A stretch of 64,000 nucleotides of DNA from Escherichia phage vB_EcoM_G37-3. The translations under genes were made by a program, and so were the position numbers. Of the stretch, positions 21,495-47,541 are shown one piece after another. The notes beneath the pieces were generated by a model. The model worked only from the letters and a program-made list of their open reading frames with translations. It made no database searches and was not told the origin of the DNA. Location of the stretch: the sequence record MK327941.1, one strand, 5' to 3'. Within the stretch, counting starts at the first letter, position 1. Each line of letters begins with the position of its first letter.

Positions 21495-21534
21495 TTTATA
21501 TCCTCTAGTTGATAACCTATAAACCTATATTTAT

Positions 21535-21563
21535 GAAAACGGGGCTTAACGCCCCCTTTTTAT
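21535..21563. terminator. Hairpin terminator
   Basis: GGGGCTTAACGCCCC hairpin with flanking T/A runs. Confidence 0.45.
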
Positions 21564-21775
21564 TATAATGCACCATCGAGCAATTGCTCTAAGGTGTATC
21601 CTGAATAGTCTTTTTCAATCAGGATATATTTTCCTACTCGTTTAATACAACCGCGCATTTCAACATATTCTGCGTAGTTGATGGTGCGAGTTGTTCCATC
21701 TTCTAGCAAAGCAGTACCGATTTCGTTAATGCGGTCATAAGTTACGTAGGTAATGATGATTTCGATGTTAGCCAT
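21563..21775 (-). CDS. Small hypothetical early protein
   Basis: Start at ATG 21775 (MANIEII...) with AAGGAG RBS downstream of promoter 21810-21838. Confidence 0.55.
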   Translation of the reverse strand: MANIEIIITYVTYDRINEIGTALLEDGTTRTINYAEYVEMRGCIKRVGKYILIEKDYSGYTLEQLLDGAL

Positions 21776-21809
21776 TTGATACTCCTTAGTAGTTCGTTTC
21801 GGTATGTGT

Positions 21810-21838
21810 ATTATAGGGGATCGATGATCCCCTGTCAA
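21810..21838 (-). promoter_or_regulatory. Early promoter with palindromic spacer (PeSL-type)
   Basis: Minus strand TTGACA-GGGGATCATCGATCCCC-TATAAT, A-tract upstream. Confidence 0.7.
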
Positions 21839-21846
21839 CAACTTTT

Positions 21847-22365
21847 TTAGTTATTTTTTAATTGCTCATCTTGCAATAGGGCAATCACATGCTGGCGATG
21901 TTCTTCCGATTGAGGCACACCGAAAAAGTTTGTTTTGTAGAAATACTCTAATCGGTCTTCTCGTGTGCTCTCTTCCATCATGATCGCGGGTAGTCCGAGA
22001 TTTCGGAAACGTCGCTTTTCTGCTGGCGTAAAATCACTGTAATACAACATAGAATCATCATTACCAGCAATGCTAAACTCATCTTTCATAAAGGAGAATA
22101 TTGCGTTTAAACGCTGTTTACCGTCCACGATTTCGATCTCATAGCGAGAGCCATCATCAATCTTAGCCATTGCGATAGCACCAACCGGAAAATCATTAAT
22201 CAGGTTTTCGATAAACATACGTTTGTTTTCGGTGTCCCATACCAAAGGACGCTGATAATCTGGGTTCATGTTGATATATCCATCTTCTAACCACGCCTCA
22301 TAAACAGAGATGACAAAGTTTTTAGTATTGGTATAGTAACGGCGTTTAGGCGTTAAACGGTTCAT
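21847..22365 (-). CDS. DUF262 / ParB-like nuclease-domain protein
   Basis: DYQRPLVWDTENK...VDGKQRLNAI resembles the DUF262 (GmrSD N-terminal) DGQQR motif; start ATG 22365 with CAGGAGA RBS. Confidence 0.5.
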   Translation of the reverse strand: MNRLTPKRRYYTNTKNFVISVYEAWLEDGYINMNPDYQRPLVWDTENKRMFIENLINDFPVGAIAMAKIDDGSRYEIEIVDGKQRLNAIFSFMKDEFSIAGNDDSMLYYSDFTPAEKRRFRNLGLPAIMMEESTREDRLEYFYKTNFFGVPQSEEHRQHVIALLQDEQLKNN

Positions 22366-22366
22366 G

Positions 22367-22699
22367 TTATAGTCTCCTGAATGGATCATCACGTAAATCA
22401 ATATCTTTTAAGAACTCATCCCATGAATGGCGGATATTGTTCTTAATTCTCCAGATAAGCGCAGGGATTGAACGCTCTCCCATCTGGAAGTATGGATCAT
22501 ATGATCCGTATGCCCAATATGCTACTACAATTCCACAATCAGAGCAATAGTATTCTATTTCACTTGCTGGCGACCAAAGTCCATCAATATGATCGGTGAT
22601 CTTGCTTTCGATGTTATGGCTATGACAATCAGGGCAACGGATGCAATGACCTTGTTTATCGTAATTTGACGTTAGCGAATACTTAAACAATCTCATCAT
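22367..22699 (-). CDS. Zinc-finger protein (hypothetical)
   Basis: CIRCPDCHSH...CSDC, two CxxC pairs. Confidence 0.5.
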   Translation of the reverse strand: MMRLFKYSLTSNYDKQGHCIRCPDCHSHNIESKITDHIDGLWSPASEIEYYCSDCGIVVAYWAYGSYDPYFQMGERSIPALIWRIKNNIRHSWDEFLKDIDLRDDPFRRL

Positions 22700-23412
22700 A
22701 GATCCTTATTGGCTTCAAATACTGCCTTTGCGAATCCTCGCGGGGTAAGTGACCTTATAGTCTTTGTTTTCGTTCCTTTCCCGCCTAGCTTAGAATGCTG
22801 TTTACTGTACCCTTTATTAATCTGCAAAGGTTTCTTTTCTGGCATCATAAAGCCTTGTCCGGTCCATAAGCAAGTCTTTTTCGGGTACATATCACGGGCG
22901 GCAATATACTCAGGAAACGTAGGATGCTTATCATCTTCCGGCAAATAACCGCCATATTCCCACGGATGAAACATATAATCAGGCTTACGCCACATGCTAG
23001 AGATAACGCTTACAGGATTCTCTATCATGTAGGGAACTCCTAGCCATTCACCCAAATAAGCGGTTATTTTAGCTGCCCGTACATCATGAACTTGAATCAA
23101 TGGTCCTTGTTCTCGTTTCTTTCGTTCAAAGTGCGCAGCGCCACTAACAGCTAAATTGGTGCACGGTGGGAATGCAAAGATAATATCCGGTTTCCCCCAT
23201 TCAAGGTCCATTGCTCTTTCCAGCCAGTTCAAATCAATCCATGTGTTTACATAGGTAATGTTTGGATGTTCAAATCTGGTATTATACTTTTTGTATGTGC
23301 CGTGGTCGCCATCATCAGCATTAAAGCAGATCACCTTATGACCTGCTTTAGCCCATTCTAGCCCCATTATCCCCGATCCGTCAAAGTTACAGAATATTAA
23401 TTTTTGTTTCAT
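22696..23412 (-). CDS. C5-cytosine methyltransferase-like protein (catalytic core only)
   Basis: Motif I-like FCNFDGSG, motif IV-like FPPCTNLAVSGA, motif VI-like MIENP; no evident target-recognition domain. Confidence 0.45.
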   Translation of the reverse strand: MKQKLIFCNFDGSGIMGLEWAKAGHKVICFNADDGDHGTYKKYNTRFEHPNITYVNTWIDLNWLERAMDLEWGKPDIIFAFPPCTNLAVSGAAHFERKKREQGPLIQVHDVRAAKITAYLGEWLGVPYMIENPVSVISSMWRKPDYMFHPWEYGGYLPEDDKHPTFPEYIAARDMYPKKTCLWTGQGFMMPEKKPLQINKGYSKQHSKLGGKGTKTKTIRSLTPRGFAKAVFEANKDL

Positions 23413-23654
23413 ATACGCCCCTTTAATCCAACACAGATTTTAGAAGGTTCTTTGCCGTGCCACATTAAGTAAAGTCCGTTAATGCGGCCTTGTTTTGTAT
23501 ATGATTCTTTTCTGATCTTCTTATAGTGTCGTGTTTCCTCAGCCGATTGTTTAGAATACCAATCATAAAGGAAGATGAACAAAGGCCACCCATTAGCGGC
23601 CTTAATGCAGTTATTCAAAAATTCCTTATTGCGTTTAATTAATTTTCTTTTCAC
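23409..23654 (-). CDS. Hypothetical protein
   Basis: 81 aa, overlapping-stop coupling with neighbours. Confidence 0.5.
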   Translation of the reverse strand: MKRKLIKRNKEFLNNCIKAANGWPLFIFLYDWYSKQSAEETRHYKKIRKESYTKQGRINGLYLMWHGKEPSKICVGLKGRI

Positions 23655-23902
23655 GCTGCCCCCATTGGTTTGATAGTAACAGAATCTAAAAGACCTTTGT
23701 TAGCCAGTTCGCGGCAAGTTTTCAGATCCGCAACTTCCCAACCAGCCGCAATCAGGTTATCAATCAGGCTGTTAGCAACTTCTTCGCTCATGAAAGAGCA
23801 CTGTTTGCCGATGGTGTAGCGTACACGCTGTAATTTCAGTTTACGGAAGCCTTTAACGTTCAGGTCTTTAGCGATTTTCTTTGCGGTTTCGATGTTAGCC
23901 AT
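23651..23902 (-). CDS. Hypothetical protein
   Basis: 83 aa, first gene after promoter 23943-23971. Confidence 0.5.
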   Translation of the reverse strand: MANIETAKKIAKDLNVKGFRKLKLQRVRYTIGKQCSFMSEEVANSLIDNLIAAGWEVADLKTCRELANKGLLDSVTIKPMGAA

Positions 23903-23942
23903 TGTTTGATTCTCCTAAGTGGTATCTCGTCTTGATGGTTGT

Positions 23943-23971
23943 ATTGTAGGGGAGTTATCCTCCCCTGTCAA
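23943..23971 (-). promoter_or_regulatory. Early promoter with palindromic spacer (PeSL-type)
   Basis: Minus strand TTGACA-GGGGAGGATAACTCCCC-TACAAT. Confidence 0.65.
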
Positions 23972-23985
23972 CACTTTTTATAAAA

Positions 23986-24153
23986 TTATTTGTTAATTTC
24001 TGGTGCGTTGCTAGGATAGTAACCTTCTTTAACACCCAGATATTTTGCAACCATCCCTACAATCTTCTGTGCTACTACAATGTCAAATTTCAGATAATCT
24101 TCGCCGTGGGTTTCAATGATATATGCTTCACATGCTGCTTTAGTCTCGAACAT
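23986..24153 (-). CDS. Small hypothetical protein (55 aa), paralog of 27246-27413
   Basis: AGGAGA RBS; about 90 percent nucleotide identity with second copy. Confidence 0.5.
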   Translation of the reverse strand: MFETKAACEAYIIETHGEDYLKFDIVVAQKIVGMVAKYLGVKEGYYPSNAPEINK

Positions 24154-24186
24154 TTTGATTCTCCTATTTCGTTTCGTTATGTGTGT

Positions 24187-24215
24187 ATTATAGGGGATCT
24201 CCCGATCCCCGTCAA
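24187..24215 (-). promoter_or_regulatory. Early promoter with palindromic spacer (PeSL-type)
   Basis: Minus strand TTGACG-GGGATCGGGAGATCCCC-TATAAT. Confidence 0.6.
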
Positions 24216-27447: not shown

Positions 27448-27476
27448 AGTATAGGGGATCACCGATCCCCTGTCAA
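27448..27476 (-). promoter_or_regulatory. Early promoter with palindromic spacer (PeSL-type)
   Basis: Minus strand TTGACA-GGGGATCGGTGATCCCC-TATACT. Confidence 0.65.
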
Positions 27477-29207: not shown

Positions 29208-29236
29208 AGTATAGGGGATACGTGATCCCCTGTCAA
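29208..29236 (-). promoter_or_regulatory. Early promoter with palindromic spacer (PeSL-type)
   Basis: Minus strand TTGACA-GGGGATCACGTATCCCC-TATACT. Confidence 0.65.
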
Positions 29237-29601: not shown

Positions 29602-30075
29602 TTACTCCTTATTTTCGCGCTCGTACTTTTCGAAATAAAATTCTACTGGCTGGTCATGAATTGACAGCAAGCCAAAGCGTTTAGCCGCTCGCAATCCCAT
29701 ATTGCGCTGAATGTACTTCTGGAAGTTCTCGCGTATACACTTACGCCAGTATTCTAAGCCCATACAGCTTTTATAAAGATTGCATTGCACACACGCCGGA
29801 TTCATGTTATCAAGTATATCATGTTCCGGTTTATGCATTCCTACAACCTTATACTTCCACGATCCATCATCATTACGGGCAATTCGTCCATTTTCATCAT
29901 AGACTACCTTTGAGCGTCGCAATACTGGTTTGATGTGGTCTGCGTGCCAGCGATCCCCTAGTTCCTCGCCACAATAGGCACAACGTCCACCATATTTCAT
30001 TTTCAGGATCTGGCGTTGCTCTTTCTTTGACAATTTTTTAGGTTTAGGGGCTTTCGCCCCTTCATTATCACACAT
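29602..30075 (-). CDS. HNH endonuclease
   Basis: CAYCGE...HADHIKP...CVQCN motif set. Confidence 0.65.
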   Translation of the reverse strand: MCDNEGAKAPKPKKLSKKEQRQILKMKYGGRCAYCGEELGDRWHADHIKPVLRRSKVVYDENGRIARNDDGSWKYKVVGMHKPEHDILDNMNPACVQCNLYKSCMGLEYWRKCIRENFQKYIQRNMGLRAAKRFGLLSIHDQPVEFYFEKYERENKE

Positions 30076-35976: not shown

Positions 35977-37146
35977 TTACCAATCAATCTTATCAGCCGG
36001 AATCAGTTTCTTATAATTCCGTAGATAGTAAGTTTTCATTGAATCCAGAATACGGTCATAATCAAGACCATCAAATGCAATCATCAGACACATGAAAATA
36101 TATGCTTGTGCATCACCGTGTTTACGTGATTCGATAGTCGCATTTGATGCATATGTCTTTCTGTCTTCTCCCGCGTGTGCGTTATAAAATTCTGTTGCTG
36201 TCGTGAAGGCATTGCGAAGAATAGACCTGAATGCTTCCTCGAATAGCTCGATTCGTTCCAGTGCTTCCGGTTCGCCTTCATATGCAGCACGCAAATCATC
36301 GGTTTCGCTTTCTACGACATAGTAGATCAGGTTATTAGGAAACATCGATGTGTTTTTAATGTTATGCACACCAATATACCATTCACTCTTCACTTTGAAC
36401 ATTTGACCGTCTTTAGTGCGTGCAACAATTCCTTCGATACCTTCTGCGATCCGAACTTCATCAAGAATATTGCTAAAACGCGCTGAATCAACCTGTAACG
36501 CATTTACCAGATGAGAACGTAGGATTGCGTCAGCAAATAGCATTTGATGCGGTACGTACTCTCCTGTGACGTTATGGCGTACATTCAGAAGTGTTAGCGA
36601 CGGTTCAGAATATTCTACAACAATTCGGTTGCTGGGCGCTGTATATTCAAAGTTGAAAGTATAATCAGACCCAATATCAGCAATCTTAGCGCGTAGATCC
36701 GCATACTTCTCTGAATACAGAAGACCGTTTGCTCTCTCTGCTTGGCTTGAGTACAAGGCCGCTTTAGACTTCAACTGAACATAGCCGTTATCAATGTATG
36801 TGCTTACTAGACTACCGTCCATTTTGTCCATGACCATTTCCACATCTTCCGGCTTAAAGCGAGCGCGATCATTCTCACCCAAATTAAAAAACTTCTCCAT
36901 AGGACGAGATGCGATGCGGACCGGACGACCTTTATCGTCAATTTCAAACATGATCCCGCGACACTCTAACGCATCTGGTTTATTCCACATTTCCGGTTTG
37001 CTCAAGTACAGATAGCTAAAAATGCGCATACGGGTTTGCATCGCCGTAATTTCATCTTTGTAATAGAACGTATCAGATCCGTCACATAGTGCCATCAGAT
37101 TTTTGAACAATGCTAAAACTTTTTTGTTGTTTTCTTTTGTTGACAT
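35977..37146 (-). CDS. rnlA: RNA ligase 1
   Basis: Extended similarity to T4 RnlA (ECRGIMFE, PVRIASRPMEKFFNL, KxDGSLVSTY, NFE). Confidence 0.9.
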   Translation of the reverse strand: MSTKENNKKVLALFKNLMALCDGSDTFYYKDEITAMQTRMRIFSYLYLSKPEMWNKPDALECRGIMFEIDDKGRPVRIASRPMEKFFNLGENDRARFKPEDVEMVMDKMDGSLVSTYIDNGYVQLKSKAALYSSQAERANGLLYSEKYADLRAKIADIGSDYTFNFEYTAPSNRIVVEYSEPSLTLLNVRHNVTGEYVPHQMLFADAILRSHLVNALQVDSARFSNILDEVRIAEGIEGIVARTKDGQMFKVKSEWYIGVHNIKNTSMFPNNLIYYVVESETDDLRAAYEGEPEALERIELFEEAFRSILRNAFTTATEFYNAHAGEDRKTYASNATIESRKHGDAQAYIFMCLMIAFDGLDYDRILDSMKTYYLRNYKKLIPADKIDW

Positions 37147-37543
37147 AATTTGTGTTCCATTCTGGTTTAAATTTGGTGATCAAAACAGGTTCTTCGATAT
37201 CGGCAGTGCTTATAATATCTTTACCCGTTGGATTCTCAATATATAACTCAAAGCACTGGCGGTAATAGAATGTTACTGTCTTCCCTTCCTCTAGCGCCTT
37301 ATGAATATTCTTACTCTTGCGAGTATCCGCTGTTGGTGTTTGTCTGTTAATGCTAGTCCGGTAATAATTGATCCGCTTTCTGAGATTGACAGTCTGACCA
37401 ATGTATACCAGTTCATCATCAACCACAATAGCATAAAGAACATTTAAACGGTTCTTCTGAGGCGGTAGAATCACATCACCATCTTTACACTCTAAACATG
37501 AATATTTAACGAATCCATAGTTTTCTATTAGCTCATTAATCAT
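37082..37543 (-). CDS. denA: GIY-YIG endonuclease (endonuclease II-like)
   Basis: GIY-YIG motif LYAIVVDDELVYIGQTVNLRKRINYY; position adjacent to rnlA as T4 denA. Confidence 0.6.
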   Translation of the reverse strand: MINELIENYGFVKYSCLECKDGDVILPPQKNRLNVLYAIVVDDELVYIGQTVNLRKRINYYRTSINRQTPTADTRKSKNIHKALEEGKTVTFYYRQCFELYIENPTGKDIISTADIEEPVLITKFKPEWNTNYVNKRKQQKSFSIVQKSDGTM

Positions 37544-39363: not shown

Positions 39364-40523
39364 AGATATTTCCCGAATCGGTTGTAGTCGTCGTCTGTTA
39401 AATCGGTATTAACCTGAGATACCAGATACATAATCTCTACTTCTTGCGCTGCATTCTGTACTTCGTCAGAGTTCAACCATTTACGCATCCACGGTAACGG
39501 ATGACGACGAACACTAAACGGGCTTTTCAGTCCGGCAGCACGCATACGGGAATCTGCCAGGTATTCTACATAGGTTTTCAGAATTTCCGGTGACAGGTTA
39601 GGAATTGCCCCCATTGCGAATAGGTGGTCTACCCATTCTTTTTCTTGCTCGACAACATCCAGAAAGATTTTCGTTGCTTCACCTTCAAGTTCTTCCGCAA
39701 TCTGTTTCCACTCATCACCATCAACCCCCGTTTGCCATTGACGAATAATGTATTGTGTGCCTTTTAAGTGAAGTTGTTCATCACGCGCAATAAATTTCAT
39801 GATCTTCGCGTTACCTTCCAGTAAACCACGTTCGGCAAAGCTGAAAGTACATGCAAAGGACACATAAAAACGAATTGCTTCCAGTGCATTGACGCAGTGT
39901 GCACACAGATAAATCGAAGCCATCAGATCTCGTTTTGTATCTTCAAAAAATCTTCTTGCATCATCTAATGCTGTCTGGTCGTCTCGTTCTTCCCAATAGC
40001 GGAGATCTTCTTTTGCATTCTCATACTTACGAATCCAATAAAGAACATCATCATAATATTTCCCGATAGATTCCGCTCGCTTCATGATAGCAGGGTTATC
40101 GATGATCTGGTCGAACTCACTAGCCGGATCAATGAAACAGTTACGCATAATGTGTGTATAGCTTCGGCTATGAATCGTTTCGCTGAATGTCCATGTTTGC
40201 AACCATGTATCGAGAGTTGGATCAGATACAATTGGACCAAATACACGGGCTGGCGCTCTGCCTTGAATCGAATCTAGCAAAGTTTGATAACGTAAGTTCT
40301 CGGTGAAGAAACGCTTTTCAACATCGCTCATATTCAGATATTGAATGCGGTCAGTTGCAAGTGAAATCTCTTCTGGACGCCAGAAAAATGACAACTGCTT
40401 CTCGATCAACTCTTCAAATACTTGATGACGCTGAATATCATAACGAGCAATCCCTAAATCACTACCAAAAAACATCGGTTCGGTCATAATATCAACATGT
40501 TCACGATTAAATACGCTCATCAC
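39360..40523 (-). CDS. nrdB: Ribonucleotide reductase small subunit
   Basis: 387 aa; R2-type ferritin-like motifs; synteny. Confidence 0.85.
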   Translation of the reverse strand: MMSVFNREHVDIMTEPMFFGSDLGIARYDIQRHQVFEELIEKQLSFFWRPEEISLATDRIQYLNMSDVEKRFFTENLRYQTLLDSIQGRAPARVFGPIVSDPTLDTWLQTWTFSETIHSRSYTHIMRNCFIDPASEFDQIIDNPAIMKRAESIGKYYDDVLYWIRKYENAKEDLRYWEERDDQTALDDARRFFEDTKRDLMASIYLCAHCVNALEAIRFYVSFACTFSFAERGLLEGNAKIMKFIARDEQLHLKGTQYIIRQWQTGVDGDEWKQIAEELEGEATKIFLDVVEQEKEWVDHLFAMGAIPNLSPEILKTYVEYLADSRMRAAGLKSPFSVRRHPLPWMRKWLNSDEVQNAAQEVEIMYLVSQVNTDLTDDDYNRFGKYL

Positions 40524-41062
40524 TATTCTCCATCAATTTTGTTTATATTGTAACCCATGTTGCCTTTTTCTATTTCTCTCAACGCAACTGAATTAAACGC
40601 TCTTGCCGCATCTTGTTCGCTATCAAATCTCCCTATATGAACACTCTTTCCTTGTATATTAATATGAACTAGCCATCTATTTGTGTACTTACACCAACTT
40701 ACCCCGTTATATTTTGATGATGCACCTTTAAATTTAGTTCTGTTTCGATTGTTGACAGAATAATCAGTACCTCGTAAATTTTCTATATGATTGTTCAGCT
40801 TGTTTCGGTCGATGTGATCTATAACTTTAGGCTTATGCCCGTGAAACATATGATAAATCACATGATGTATTAACTTCTTTCTATTGTCTACTGTTAGTTG
40901 AAGATATCCCCCATTATGTGGACTTCCAACCTCATCACCAACTTTAACTTTATTGCTTGTTGAAACCTTTCTGAAAAGTTTACCATCTTCGTATTTAAAT
41001 AGATAATGATACCTTTCGTAAAGTATTCGGTCCTCTTCCGTATAATGTATTACCTCATACAT
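40523..41062 (-). CDS. HNH-AP2 homing endonuclease (mobE-like position)
   Basis: HNH (HHVIYH...IDHIDRNKLNNHIENLR) plus AP2 domain (YNGVSW...GRFDSEQDAARAFN); located between nrdA and nrdB. Confidence 0.65.
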   Translation of the reverse strand: MYEVIHYTEEDRILYERYHYLFKYEDGKLFRKVSTSNKVKVGDEVGSPHNGGYLQLTVDNRKKLIHHVIYHMFHGHKPKVIDHIDRNKLNNHIENLRGTDYSVNNRNRTKFKGASSKYNGVSWCKYTNRWLVHINIQGKSVHIGRFDSEQDAARAFNSVALREIEKGNMGYNINKIDGE

Positions 41063-41438: not shown

Positions 41439-41467
41439 ATTATAGCGGGGATTTCTCCCCGCGTCAA
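41439..41467 (-). promoter_or_regulatory. Early promoter with palindromic spacer (PeSL-type)
   Basis: Minus strand TTGACG-CGGGGAGAAATCCCCGC-TATAAT. Confidence 0.65.
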
Positions 41468-43788: not shown

Positions 43789-45009
43789 TTATACTGCCAT
43801 TTGAGCGGTGATCGCTGGATGGCTTTGATAGTTGTGAATTTTAAAATCTTTCGGAGTCTTTGTCAATACCTCATCTAAAGATTTAAATTCCGGCAACTCA
43901 ATTGTTGGTTTATCAAACGGAACACGGCTTAACTGTTCCATAACTTGATCAAAATGGTTTTTGTAAATGTGAGTATCTCCACCAGAGAAAATCAGTTCTC
44001 CTACCTCAAGATCACACATTTTCGCTATGATGTGAGTTAACAGCGCATAGCTGGCGACGTTAAAGGGCAAGCCCAAAAAGCAGTCTACGCTTCGCTGAAA
44101 CCACATACAAGACAGTTTACCTTCATTGACGTAGAATTGTACGAACGGATGACATACACCCAATACAGCATTATGTGTTCCTTGTACGTTCCATGAGTCA
44201 ATGATGATACGTCGATCCGTTGGATTGTTTTTAATTTGTTCAATCACGTTTTGTAACTGGTCTTCCCAAATCTTCGGGCGATAGACATATTCTTCATCGT
44301 CTTTAGTGCTTGATGTGTCTACGTCCATACTAACAAACATCGTGGTATCCGGTGCTATAATATCCCCACCCAGATAATCACTATCAAGCAGATAACCGAA
44401 ATAACCATCATCTACCCATTCCTGGAATCCCCACAAGCAATATGCATCATTAACAAAATTAGATTGAGTCTTCCAGTGGTCTGCTACCAGAATATAATCA
44501 AACTCTTCATAACGCATACCACGCCAGATAGCACATAAACGGTCTTCTGTGTCATTGGTTGGCGTAAAGTCTTCTACCCACGGGTGCTTAAATGTATGTG
44601 TATATTTGCTCTTAACGCGCTTAATTTTGATTTCACCATGTGGATGAATCGGTTTGCGTCGCCACGCCATACCATACATATTGCCGACATTATAACCATT
44701 GAATCGCAAGGGATTCTTTTCTTTCATATCAAGACAGTTGCCGCGCCAAATATCAAAGGCTTCCTCGTCAAACTTGCCGCGTGTAATTTCCTGTAAGCGA
44801 CGGCGGTCAAGTGATCCATCCATAAACCATAGCAATTCGCCAATTACAGAGGCTGTAGCCATCTTTTTAGTGGTCAGTAATGGGAAACCCTTGCTTAAAT
44901 CAATTCGCATCTCTGCGCCGAATTTAGAGAGCGTACCTACCCCCGTGCGGTCTTCACGAGGACAGCCATTATCAAGAACATCACGCAATAGTTTCAAATA
45001 TTCTTTCAT
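43789..45009 (-). CDS. td: Thymidylate synthase with about 125-aa internal insertion
   Basis: TS motifs (DRTGVGT, RRIIIDSWN, VCHPFVQFYV, RSVDCFLGLPFNVASYALL, GDTHIY) in one 406-aa ORF; T4 Td is 286 aa. Confidence 0.8.
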   Translation of the reverse strand: MKEYLKLLRDVLDNGCPREDRTGVGTLSKFGAEMRIDLSKGFPLLTTKKMATASVIGELLWFMDGSLDRRRLQEITRGKFDEEAFDIWRGNCLDMKEKNPLRFNGYNVGNMYGMAWRRKPIHPHGEIKIKRVKSKYTHTFKHPWVEDFTPTNDTEDRLCAIWRGMRYEEFDYILVADHWKTQSNFVNDAYCLWGFQEWVDDGYFGYLLDSDYLGGDIIAPDTTMFVSMDVDTSSTKDDEEYVYRPKIWEDQLQNVIEQIKNNPTDRRIIIDSWNVQGTHNAVLGVCHPFVQFYVNEGKLSCMWFQRSVDCFLGLPFNVASYALLTHIIAKMCDLEVGELIFSGGDTHIYKNHFDQVMEQLSRVPFDKPTIELPEFKSLDEVLTKTPKDFKIHNYQSHPAITAQMAV

Positions 45010-46317: not shown

Positions 46318-47541
46318 TTACGCTGTCAACTCTTTTTCAAAAGATTTTACGATATACATGATGGTGCTCAATTCGGACGGCGCTACTGTCTCTGTGTAGC
46401 CATCCGGCATATCTTCTTTCGAGATATAGGAAGTTTTACCTTTCATTGCTTCCTTGATTTTGTTCTCTAATTCTAAGATCTTTTGACCGTCTTGTAAAGT
46501 CAATTCATAAAAGATCTCATGATCGAACTTTGAAACACGAGATTGGTTTCTCATGCGCTCATGTGTTTCTTTGTTTGTTATTCCAAATTTCACGCCAACA
46601 AAGGAATCATTGTTGGTTAATTTCTGTATATAAAGAGTTCCTGTCTTTAATGCCTGATAACCATGCTTAGAACACAACGGGCAGCGTGTTCCGCGATTAA
46701 CAAAATTATCAATAGTTACATCCCATTCATGGTTACGTTCGCATGTCAGAAGTATTCTTGTTAATGCACCTTTCCACTTTCCTGAAATCCCAATAAATTT
46801 TAGTCTGTTGGTTTCGCATATTTTTTTAATTTGTTTTAATCGGTCACTTTTTGTTATTGGTGCTGTTCCGCTACATTTGCGACACCGACGACCTAGTTTG
46901 AACTTATCATAACTTTGTTCGTAAATGTGATTATTAGGACACTCAAATTTAAGTTTAGTTTTTGTTCCTCTCCATTCCCCAATTATACCCAAAAATTTAT
47001 AATCTCCTTTATTTTCATTTATATAAGATAAGGAATCTTCTTTATCATGCATCTTGCCCCCGTTACATAAAGGACATCTTGTTTTTTGATGAATGAAATC
47101 TGTATATGTTGGTTGGTATGTGTGTCCGTTTGTACAGTTCATAATGAGTCTTGTTCTGCTATTTTTATACTCCCCACCAACAAAACCAACAAATACATCG
47201 TTTGTTTCTTGTTTTATTCTTTCTATCACATTGTTTGGGTTTAATCTTTGAGAATCAACCACACATTTCTTACACGAAACTTTTTTCCTGATATTTGCTA
47301 GAGTTGATGTGTATTCATGCTTGTTATTACATAATATAAGAGCTTTTGTTTTGAGACCAGACCATTCTCCAACAAACCCCATGAAAGAATAACCAACTTC
47401 CAAACATGAATTTTTTACAACATTTTCCCAATAGAAGGGAGTTTTCGTGTTTCCTTTTATTTCTATACGAATCTCGTGTGCTTGACGTACCAACATATTT
47501 TTATCCTCCGTTGTTTCGATGATTGTATTATACATTACCAC
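46318..47541 (-). CDS. Zinc-ribbon-repeat protein with C-terminal T5orf172 (GIY-YIG-like) domain
   Basis: Four repeats of F.G..GEW.G..T...L.C...H.....Y..F....RC..C; C-terminal GTLYIQKL...VGVKFGITN..THERMRNQ. Confidence 0.5.
   Translation of the reverse strand: MVMYNTIIETTEDKNMLVRQAHEIRIEIKGNTKTPFYWENVVKNSCLEVGYSFMGFVGEWSGLKTKALILCNNKHEYTSTLANIRKKVSCKKCVVDSQRLNPNNVIERIKQETNDVFVGFVGGEYKNSRTRLIMNCTNGHTYQPTYTDFIHQKTRCPLCNGGKMHDKEDSLSYINENKGDYKFLGIIGEWRGTKTKLKFECPNNHIYEQSYDKFKLGRRCRKCSGTAPITKSDRLKQIKKICETNRLKFIGISGKWKGALTRILLTCERNHEWDVTIDNFVNRGTRCPLCSKHGYQALKTGTLYIQKLTNNDSFVGVKFGITNKETHERMRNQSRVSKFDHEIFYELTLQDGQKILELENKIKEAMKGKTSYISKEDMPDGYTETVAPSELSTIMYIVKSFEKELTA

Follow-up and report, generated by a model that had tools for sequence, protein, structure and literature searches.

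Location and structure of the cassette

We describe a cassette of five early genes (g1 to g5) in DNA of Escherichia phage vB_EcoM_G37-3 (MK327941.1). The window, which is the whole stretch of DNA that was analysed, contained 64,000 nucleotides, and its GC content was ~40%. The cassette lies on the minus strand at 21847-23902 and includes a methyltransferase gene (g3) and a gene for a DUF262 protein (g5). Bases 21500-24200 were 97-99% identical to 57 Krischvirus records, among them RB49, phi1, JSE, TB34, SAP, and Sf20. On this identity we assign the window to a Krischvirus (RB49-like) genome.

The cassette is located in a hyperplastic region, among the small early genes that separate alt from gene 30 (DNA ligase). 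T4-type genes on one flank encode the major head protein, baseplate hub proteins, the tail tube, Alt, and a second ADP-ribosyltransferase. The other flank encodes DNA ligase, polynucleotide kinase, RNA ligase, a DenA-like endonuclease, NrdAB, thymidylate synthase, gp32, and gp59. The five genes are homologs of RB49p190, p189.1, p189, p188, and p187. The arrangement is absent from T4, and an earlier note on this DNA had not recognized it from that phage. It is already annotated in RB49-like coliphages, and the arrangement is already known. The RB49 reference genome has included these genes since 2003. They leave little for discovery.

The cassette is driven by an early promoter of the stem-loop (PeSL) type at 23943-23971 on the minus strand. 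It reads TTGACA-17-TACAAT and matches the consensus at 11 of 12 positions. Its spacer is filled by an inverted repeat (GGGGAG..CTCCCC) that makes a perfect stem-loop. All five genes are on the minus strand. g1 (23651-23902; 83 amino acids [aa]; phrog_14908) is followed by g2 (23409-23654; 81 aa; phrog_7065), whose GTG start overlaps the g1 stop as GTGA. g3 (22696-23412; 238 aa) encodes a short Dcm-like DNA C5-cytosine methyltransferase, and g4 (22367-22699; 110 aa; phrog_2993) encodes a Cys4 zinc-ribbon protein. The g2/g3 and g3/g4 junctions are ATGA overlaps. g5 (21847-22365; 172 aa) encodes a stand-alone DUF262 (GmrSD_N) protein. Its ATG begins one base past the g4 stop (TAAcATG), with GGAG 9 nucleotides (nt) upstream. 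The earlier note had described five translationally coupled genes behind a consensus early promoter, and the coordinates, overlaps, and promoter were all present as described.

The downstream border is a second PeSL promoter and stem-loop at 21810-21838 (minus), which matches the consensus at 12 of 12 positions. It is also the promoter of g6 (21563-21775, minus; 70 aa), an RB49p185 homolog that makes up a separate PeSL cassette and is followed by an intrinsic terminator at 21555-21541. The window contained 6 occurrences of the pattern TTGACN-GGG(11)CCC-TAYAAT, for which shuffles gave an expectation of 0.01. The six PeSLs are all on the minus strand, at 21810-21838, 23943-23971, 24187-24215, 27448-27476, 29208-29236, and 41439-41467. 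PeSL promoter/terminator cassettes have been described for RB49 and phi1 (PMC2839356, PMC4122927).

The cassette has a PeSL motif on each flank, and close relatives show indel polymorphism at the borders. The PeSL cassettes RB49p186, in the gap between g5 and g6, and ORFan192, in the gap between p191 and p193, are present in RB49 and absent from the window. The presence of both varies among close relatives. Within the cassette, g2 is precisely deleted in phage JK32, where the g1 stop is joined onto the g3 start; g2 is therefore dispensable. No g2 homolog was detected in one metagenomic relative.

The small genes g1, g2, and g4

NCBIfam gave no useful matches for any of g1 to g5. g1 and g2 are ORFans. 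Residues 43-75 of g1 resemble one helical hairpin of the pentatricopeptide repeat (PPR) type. Against designer PPR proteins, phmmer gave an E value of ~1e-9, yet no single stretch passes alone, and the match is weak and repeat-like. g1 also has a weak PADLOC match (E value, 2.6e-5) to the C terminus of the DRT reverse transcriptase RT_UG35. The zinc-finger protein of the earlier note is g4. Homologs of g4 occur in Felixounavirus, JenP1-like, and other phages, apart from any g3 or g5 homolog.

The methyltransferase gene g3

g3 encodes the motifs of a C5-cytosine methyltransferase. Motif I is F10-D-G12-S13-G14 (FxGSG), which is invariant in close members and looser in the wider family. Motif IV is F81-P82-P83-C84, and motif VI is E131-N132-P133. 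Across 69 diverse members of the g3 family, C84, E131, and P133 are invariant, and P82 and N132 are nearly so. The PHROG family 757 ("DNA methyltransferase") matches g3 end to end (residues 1-237; E value, 2e-90). The match to Pfam PF00145 (DNA_methylase) covered residues 10-100 only and was below the gathering score (14.6 bits versus 22). Searches of the PDB sequences with g3, as a single sequence or as a profile, gave nothing significant. An hhalign comparison with M.HhaI put motifs IV and VI in register with PCQ and ENV; its E value of 0.19 is not significant, and it serves as illustration only.

g3 was placed by structure comparison alone. The AlphaFold2 model, built from the 69 diverse relatives, had a pLDDT (predicted local distance difference test score) of 93.6. 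In this predicted model, g3 has the class I S-adenosylmethionine (SAM)-methyltransferase fold with the topology of C5-methyltransferases. The best structural matches were DNMT3A and DNMT3B. We found no recognizable motif VIII (QxRxR) and no variable target-recognition domain (TRD) between motifs VIII and IX in g3. The motifs and the predicted fold thus agree with the earlier note, which had described a C5-methyltransferase-like core with motifs I, IV, and VI and without a TRD.

Within the g3 family, conservation is highest in the 68-residue segment at the TRD position (residues 136-203). The mean column entropy of this segment was 1.80, compared with 2.68 for residues 1-76. This strong conservation is a new detail. 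It holds across the family and therefore suggests, from the alignment, that members share one common substrate or motif rather than having diversified specificities.

The g3 family contained 7,309 members in 90% clusters and 1,159 representatives at 50%. Nearly all are 220-260 aa long. g3 homologs are encoded in 1,523 of 50,697 phage records, and many are annotated as Dcm or C5 methylase. Carriers include the Drexlerviridae, Dhillonvirus, Vequintavirinae, and Seunavirus. In a 2021 survey of the Tevenvirinae, the features listed for the RB49 group include a DNA-cytosine methyltransferase (PMC8056088).

One member of the family has been characterized. Mutants of the Drexlerviridae phage K42 (KarlJaspers-like) that escape retron Ec86 map to a 711-bp dcm gene (bioRxiv 10.1101/2023.08.16.553469). 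According to the same study, K42 Dcm expressed alone in Escherichia coli raised 5-methylcytosine (5mC) on the multicopy single-stranded DNA (msDNA), as measured by mass spectrometry coupled to liquid chromatography (LC-MS). The C82A/E128A/K175A/K176A mutant was inactive, and the predicted structure superposes on DNMT3A. The CCWGG target given for K42 Dcm comes from analogy and msDNA motif mutants, not from a methylome. We found exactly C82, E128, K175, and K176 in a 711-bp Drexlerviridae homolog from phage tonijn (236 aa), which is 55% identical to g3 over 238 aa. The equivalent residues in g3 are C84, E131, K178, and K179. With full-length homology, a length of ~230 aa, and these C/E/KK residues, g3 belongs to the short phage Dcm family (K42 Dcm, phrog_757).

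g3 might instead be something other than a plain DNA methylase. It could transfer another group, such as carboxymethyl from carboxy-SAM (Cx-SAM), or act on RNA or a nucleotide. Its motifs do deviate from the classical ones (PPC-T and ENP), and the score of 14.6 bits against a threshold of 22 for Pfam DNA_methylase points the same way. However, a member of the family makes 5mC in DNA by LC-MS, and the closest structures are DNMT3A and DNMT3B. We regard a different chemistry or substrate as highly improbable.

The DUF262 gene g5

g5 passes the Pfam model GmrSD_N (PF03235, DUF262) with an E value of 5e-20 and 72.9 bits (cutoff, 33.2). It covers positions 5-105 of 199 in the Pfam model and positions 9-183 of 417 in phrog_1583. 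It contains the motifs YQRxxVW (YQR..W) and DGKQR. NxxGVPQSEEH is an invariant C-terminal motif of the g5 subfamily. The predicted structure model was of moderate quality and has the ParB/Srx fold. When searched with a profile of the g5 subfamily, the PDB yields the DUF262 chains of DndI and BrxU. The profile also finds 2,869 relatives, of which the best 120 are 160-298 aa long and contain PF03235 alone. Sequence identity between g5 and the solved host enzymes was 12-17%. The best PADLOC matches of g5 are defence proteins, namely, NsnA (1e-20) and PD-T4-2_A (6e-12).

In enzymes of the GmrSD family, DUF262 is a ParB/Srx-type nucleoside triphosphate (NTP)-binding module, and the nuclease is a separate DUF1524/HNH domain (PMC4619093, PMC12373910). 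The conserved nuclease motif belongs to GmrD, and NTP binding is the role given to DGQQR (PMC4619093, PMC12373910). g5 ends after the ParB/Srx domain. It has no DUF1524/HNH (His-Me finger) nuclease, either fused or in an adjacent gene. Scans with Pfam, PHROG, NCBIfam, and PADLOC matched no nuclease family to g5, g1, g2, g4, or g6. The earlier note was right that g5 is a DUF262 protein with a DGQQR-like motif. It had taken DUF262 for the nuclease domain of GmrSD, which it is not; DUF262 is the NTP-binding part, and g5 does not appear to be a nuclease-domain protein. The two findings that the note had named as counting against it, a g3 outside the methyltransferases and a g5 without the DUF262 fold, were looked for and did not turn up. 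What the note had observed therefore stands. Its interpretation is supported in part, with the folds right and the functional proposal not borne out.

These domains bear directly on a restriction-modification-like pair, as proposed in the earlier note, in which g3 marks self DNA and g5 cuts DNA that is unmarked or differently marked. The methylase does adjoin a domain named after GmrSD. Older literature gave GmrS nuclease activity, and some ParB-fold proteins have been named nucleases. Domain content already largely refutes such a pair, as g5 is without DUF1524/HNH and DGQQR belongs to NTP binding (PMC4619093, PMC12373910). Linkage of the genes is not conserved, and the virion DNA of a near-identical phage is without detectable modification (see below). 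We consider this model extremely unlikely.

g5 may also be an anti-defence decoy. It would co-assemble or compete with host DUF262 enzymes (GmrSD/BrxU, SspE, or DndB/DndI type). 5mC-marked phage DNA would thereby be shielded from type IV restriction, and the operon would be a loose anti-restriction unit. DUF262 enzymes act as dimers or as GmrS/GmrSD pairs of a ParB_n-only and a ParB_n-HNH protein (PMC12373910). g5 belongs to the early genes, many phages and prophages have homologs of it in their accessory early regions, and its PADLOC matches are to defence proteins. However, an identity of 12-17% to the solved host enzymes is low for co-assembly, and no experimental hint points to a decoy. 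TB34 is reported to be insensitive to BrxU simply because its DNA is unmodified (PMC13390438). On balance a decoy is unlikely. If g5 did poison host DUF262 nucleases, it would be the first phage-encoded DUF262 decoy. The short DUF262-only family (~2,900 relatives, mostly in phage early regions) is a reasonable target for anti-defence screens.

Linkage of g3, g4, and g5

We examined the 80 best viral loci with a g3 relative, one of which was from Krischvirus, over 4 kb on either side of the gene. Homologs of g1, g2, g4, or g5 were found at 0 of the 79 non-Krischvirus loci by tblastn, phmmer, and a DUF262 hidden Markov model (HMM). The conserved neighbors of g3 relatives were replication-module genes, including helicases, Dam, polymerase, and small open reading frames (ORFs). 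Conversely, the examined loci with g4 or g5 homologs in other phages contained no g3 homolog. Homologs of g5 in RB43, Slopekvirus (Matisse), other phages, and Salmonella lambdoid prophages adjoin unrelated genes. In the Salmonella prophages, the DUF262-only gene lies between recE/recT and xis/int, two genes upstream of a gene with an Nmad5 domain. We also considered a conserved pair of zinc ribbon and DUF262. It was rejected, as in RB43 and Matisse the g5 homolog has an unrelated upstream gene, for a protein with a hydrophobic tail. g3, g4, and g5 were present together in all Krischvirus genomes seen.

In the loci examined, linkage of the modification gene and the effector gene was thus not conserved across lineages, which speaks against a methylase-nuclease module. 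The earlier note had proposed a module of modification and nuclease for self/non-self discrimination. The 0 of 79 loci, the g4 and g5 loci without g3, and the activity of K42 Dcm alone all speak against it. Most simply, unrelated accessory genes would have come to stand behind one promoter through PeSL-mediated shuffling.

The genes could still work together in another way. g5, with its ParB fold and perhaps with g4, might activate or target the TRD-less g3 by loading it on double-stranded DNA (dsDNA) or by recognizing sequence for it. g3 is without a classical TRD, and in Krischvirus the three genes always occur together, with translational coupling. ParB-like proteins serve as activators for one subclass of phage thymine dioxygenases; the precedent is ParB176, which 5mYOX176 needs on dsDNA (PMC13229309). 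RB43-like phages, too, have a g5 homolog in addition to a C5 methylase (PMC8056088). Set against this, none of the 79 other methylase loci had a DUF262 or g4 homolog nearby, even with the HMM search, and expression of K42 Dcm alone yields an active enzyme. In RB43, Matisse, the Salmonella prophages, and other phages, the g5 homologs stand beside unrelated genes. The putative recognition segment of g3 is conserved across the family, so no lineage-specific partner should be needed. We find such an activator quite unlikely. Similarly, we give little probability to cooperation of g3, g4, and g5 within Krischvirus, either through loading or targeting of the methylase on dsDNA or through poisoning of host DUF262 type IV nucleases by g5.

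Proposed role of the cassette and DNA modification

The five genes are probably a PeSL-bounded early accessory cassette in which independent functions were brought together in Krischvirus, and not a methylase-nuclease system. g1 to g5 form one early transcription unit with a shared sigma-70 promoter and translational coupling and would keep independent functions. As a member of the short phage Dcm family, g3 would be an orphan DNA C5-cytosine methyltransferase that uses SAM and is made early in infection. By its catalytic motifs, Cys84 is predicted to attack C6 of a flipped cytosine and Glu131 to protonate N3, with the methyl group passing to C5. Most likely, g3 marks a short and sparse motif on replicating phage DNA soon after infection and marks host DNA incidentally. 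The candidate motif is CCWGG, by analogy with the proposal for the characterized homolog. The marking would likely weaken restriction at that motif and, as a drawback, could be detected by sensors of which retron Ec86 is an example.

g5 would be a stand-alone ParB/Srx-type nucleotide-binding domain and, without a GmrD-type site, would not cleave DNA in that way. We infer that g5 most likely functions on its own in conflicts of the phage with its host or with other phages, as an accessory factor that binds DNA or protein in an NTP-dependent way. g4 is a small zinc-ribbon protein.

Several observations weigh against this reading. TB34, whose operon is ~99% identical, shows no detectable modified nucleosides by high-performance liquid chromatography and mass spectrometry (HPLC/MS) (PMC13390438). 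CCWGG occurs at 26 sites in the 64-kb window, so marking at that level would involve ~0.2% of cytosines, and the TB34 result therefore excludes bulk modification only. CCWGG is also 3-fold depleted (26 observed versus 72 expected), which is unexpected under full protection. The depletion fits either incomplete protection or decay of 5mC by deamination. A functional link is compatible with the fact that g3, g4, and g5 are tightly coupled in translation and occur together in every Krischvirus genome seen. RB43-like phages have a C5 methylase (PMC8056088) and a g5 homolog that is not adjacent to it, and an association at the level of the genome is possible. Finally, E. coli B is given as the host in four Krischvirus records, and retron Ec86 is native to BL21(DE3) (bioRxiv 10.1101/2023.08.16.553469). 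Either g3 does not trigger this retron or the phage evades it.

Avoidance of restriction sites is very strong in the window. Of 64 six-base palindromes, 24 were absent from the 64 kb, compared with only 34 of 4,032 nonpalindromic hexamers. The absent sites include those of EcoRI, HindIII, BamHI, PstI, SalI, KpnI, NcoI, XhoI, SacI, and SmaI. Observed/expected ratios were 0.35 for GGCC, 0.36 for CCWGG, 0.32 for CCSGG, and 1.03 for GATC. This avoidance fits a T4-like phage that has unmodified cytosines and relies on avoidance.

TB34 and SAP are reported to be 99.96% identical, yet SAP has 5-hydroxymethylcytosine and glucosylated cytosine and TB34 is unmodified (PMC13390438). Across the 4.4 kb that include the cassette, the two phages have identical g1 to g5. 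The only differences are an 80-bp tandem PeSL duplication, the lengths of T runs beside -35 boxes, and a single-base (G) indel ~1.2 kb upstream of the cassette. With g1 to g5 identical in both, we rejected the operon as the cause of the difference in modification. The modification profile of SAP is that of the Tequatrovirus phages in the same study (PMC13390438). From this match we infer that a mixed preparation of DNA, and not a Krischvirus pathway, is a possible source of the SAP modification.

The window also encodes a DenA-like GIY-YIG endonuclease at 37082-37543 on the minus strand (phrog_1111 E value, 2e-52; 27% identity to RB43 DenA). Its presence in a phage with cytosine DNA raises the question of how the phage spares its own DNA (PMC8056088). 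g3 methylation might shield the cytosine DNA of the phage from this homolog of DenA/endonuclease II, in which case the partner of g3 would lie elsewhere in the genome. The idea has been raised for the RB43 and RB49 groups (PMC8056088). However, TB34 has no bulk modification, and the g3 methylase family is common in phages without DenA, such as the Drexlerviridae. The two genes are 14 kb apart and show no genetic linkage. We judge a shield of this kind very unlikely.

If g3 acts as proposed, there are consequences for work with RB49-like phages. Those used as "unmodified DNA" controls probably contain 5mC at scattered sites, made by the phage itself, and retron Ec86 may sense them.

Other genes in the window

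The thymidylate synthase ORF at 43789-45009 (minus) encodes 406 aa. The Pfam model matches it in two parts. They are separated by an in-frame insertion of ~130-140 aa near residue 110, and the insert has no obvious intein ends. Three probable homing/HNH-type endonuclease genes lie among the nucleotide-metabolism genes, all on the minus strand. The gene at 46318-47541 encodes CapR and treble-clef domains. The gene at 40523-41062 encodes HNH_3 and AP2 domains. The gene at 29602-30075 is HNH/endonuclease VII-like.

Comparison with known systems

g3 shares a Rossmann-type fold, motif I (FxGxG), the Pro-Cys nucleophile, and the ENx glutamate with M.HhaI, M.HaeIII, and DNMT3A/3B (PF00145). As in classical C5-methyltransferases, it has a C-terminal helix at the position of motifs IX/X. 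It is ~90 residues shorter than M.HhaI. It reads PPC-T where the classical enzymes read PCQ and ENP where they read ENV, and it is without their variable TRD and QxRxR. The closest characterized relative is K42 Dcm, which is of the same family and similar size (236 versus 238 aa) and has the same catalytic residues and a DNMT3A-like predicted fold. K42 is a siphovirus, whereas g3 is in a T4-like myovirus, inside a PeSL cassette, and is a predicted methyltransferase.

g5 shares the DUF262 ParB/Srx domain, YQR..W, and DG(Q/K)QR with GmrSD, BrxU, SspE, and DndI. At 172 aa, it is without their linker and DUF1524/HNH domain. Unlike the enzymes of the GmrSD family, it is phage encoded and early expressed and has no partner nuclease nearby. 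It resembles GmrS1 of the two-gene GmrS/GmrSD systems of ECOR17, which is also DUF262 without nuclease (PMC12373910). GmrS1 adjoins the GmrSD2 nuclease and works with it (PMC12373910), whereas g5 has no such neighbor. The ParB-like activators of phage 5-methylpyrimidine dioxygenases (PMC13229309) also place a ParB-fold protein beside a post-replicative DNA-modifying enzyme. In those phages the two make a conserved and functionally required pair; here the pair is limited to one genus, and the enzyme family works alone elsewhere.

The cassette as a whole is like the PeSL cassettes of RB49 and phi1 (PMC2839356, PMC4122927). It has a PeSL at both borders, lies in a hyperplastic region, and shows gain and loss of ORFs at the borders. 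We see no difference from those cassettes, and the five ORFs between two PeSLs are an instance of the same architecture.

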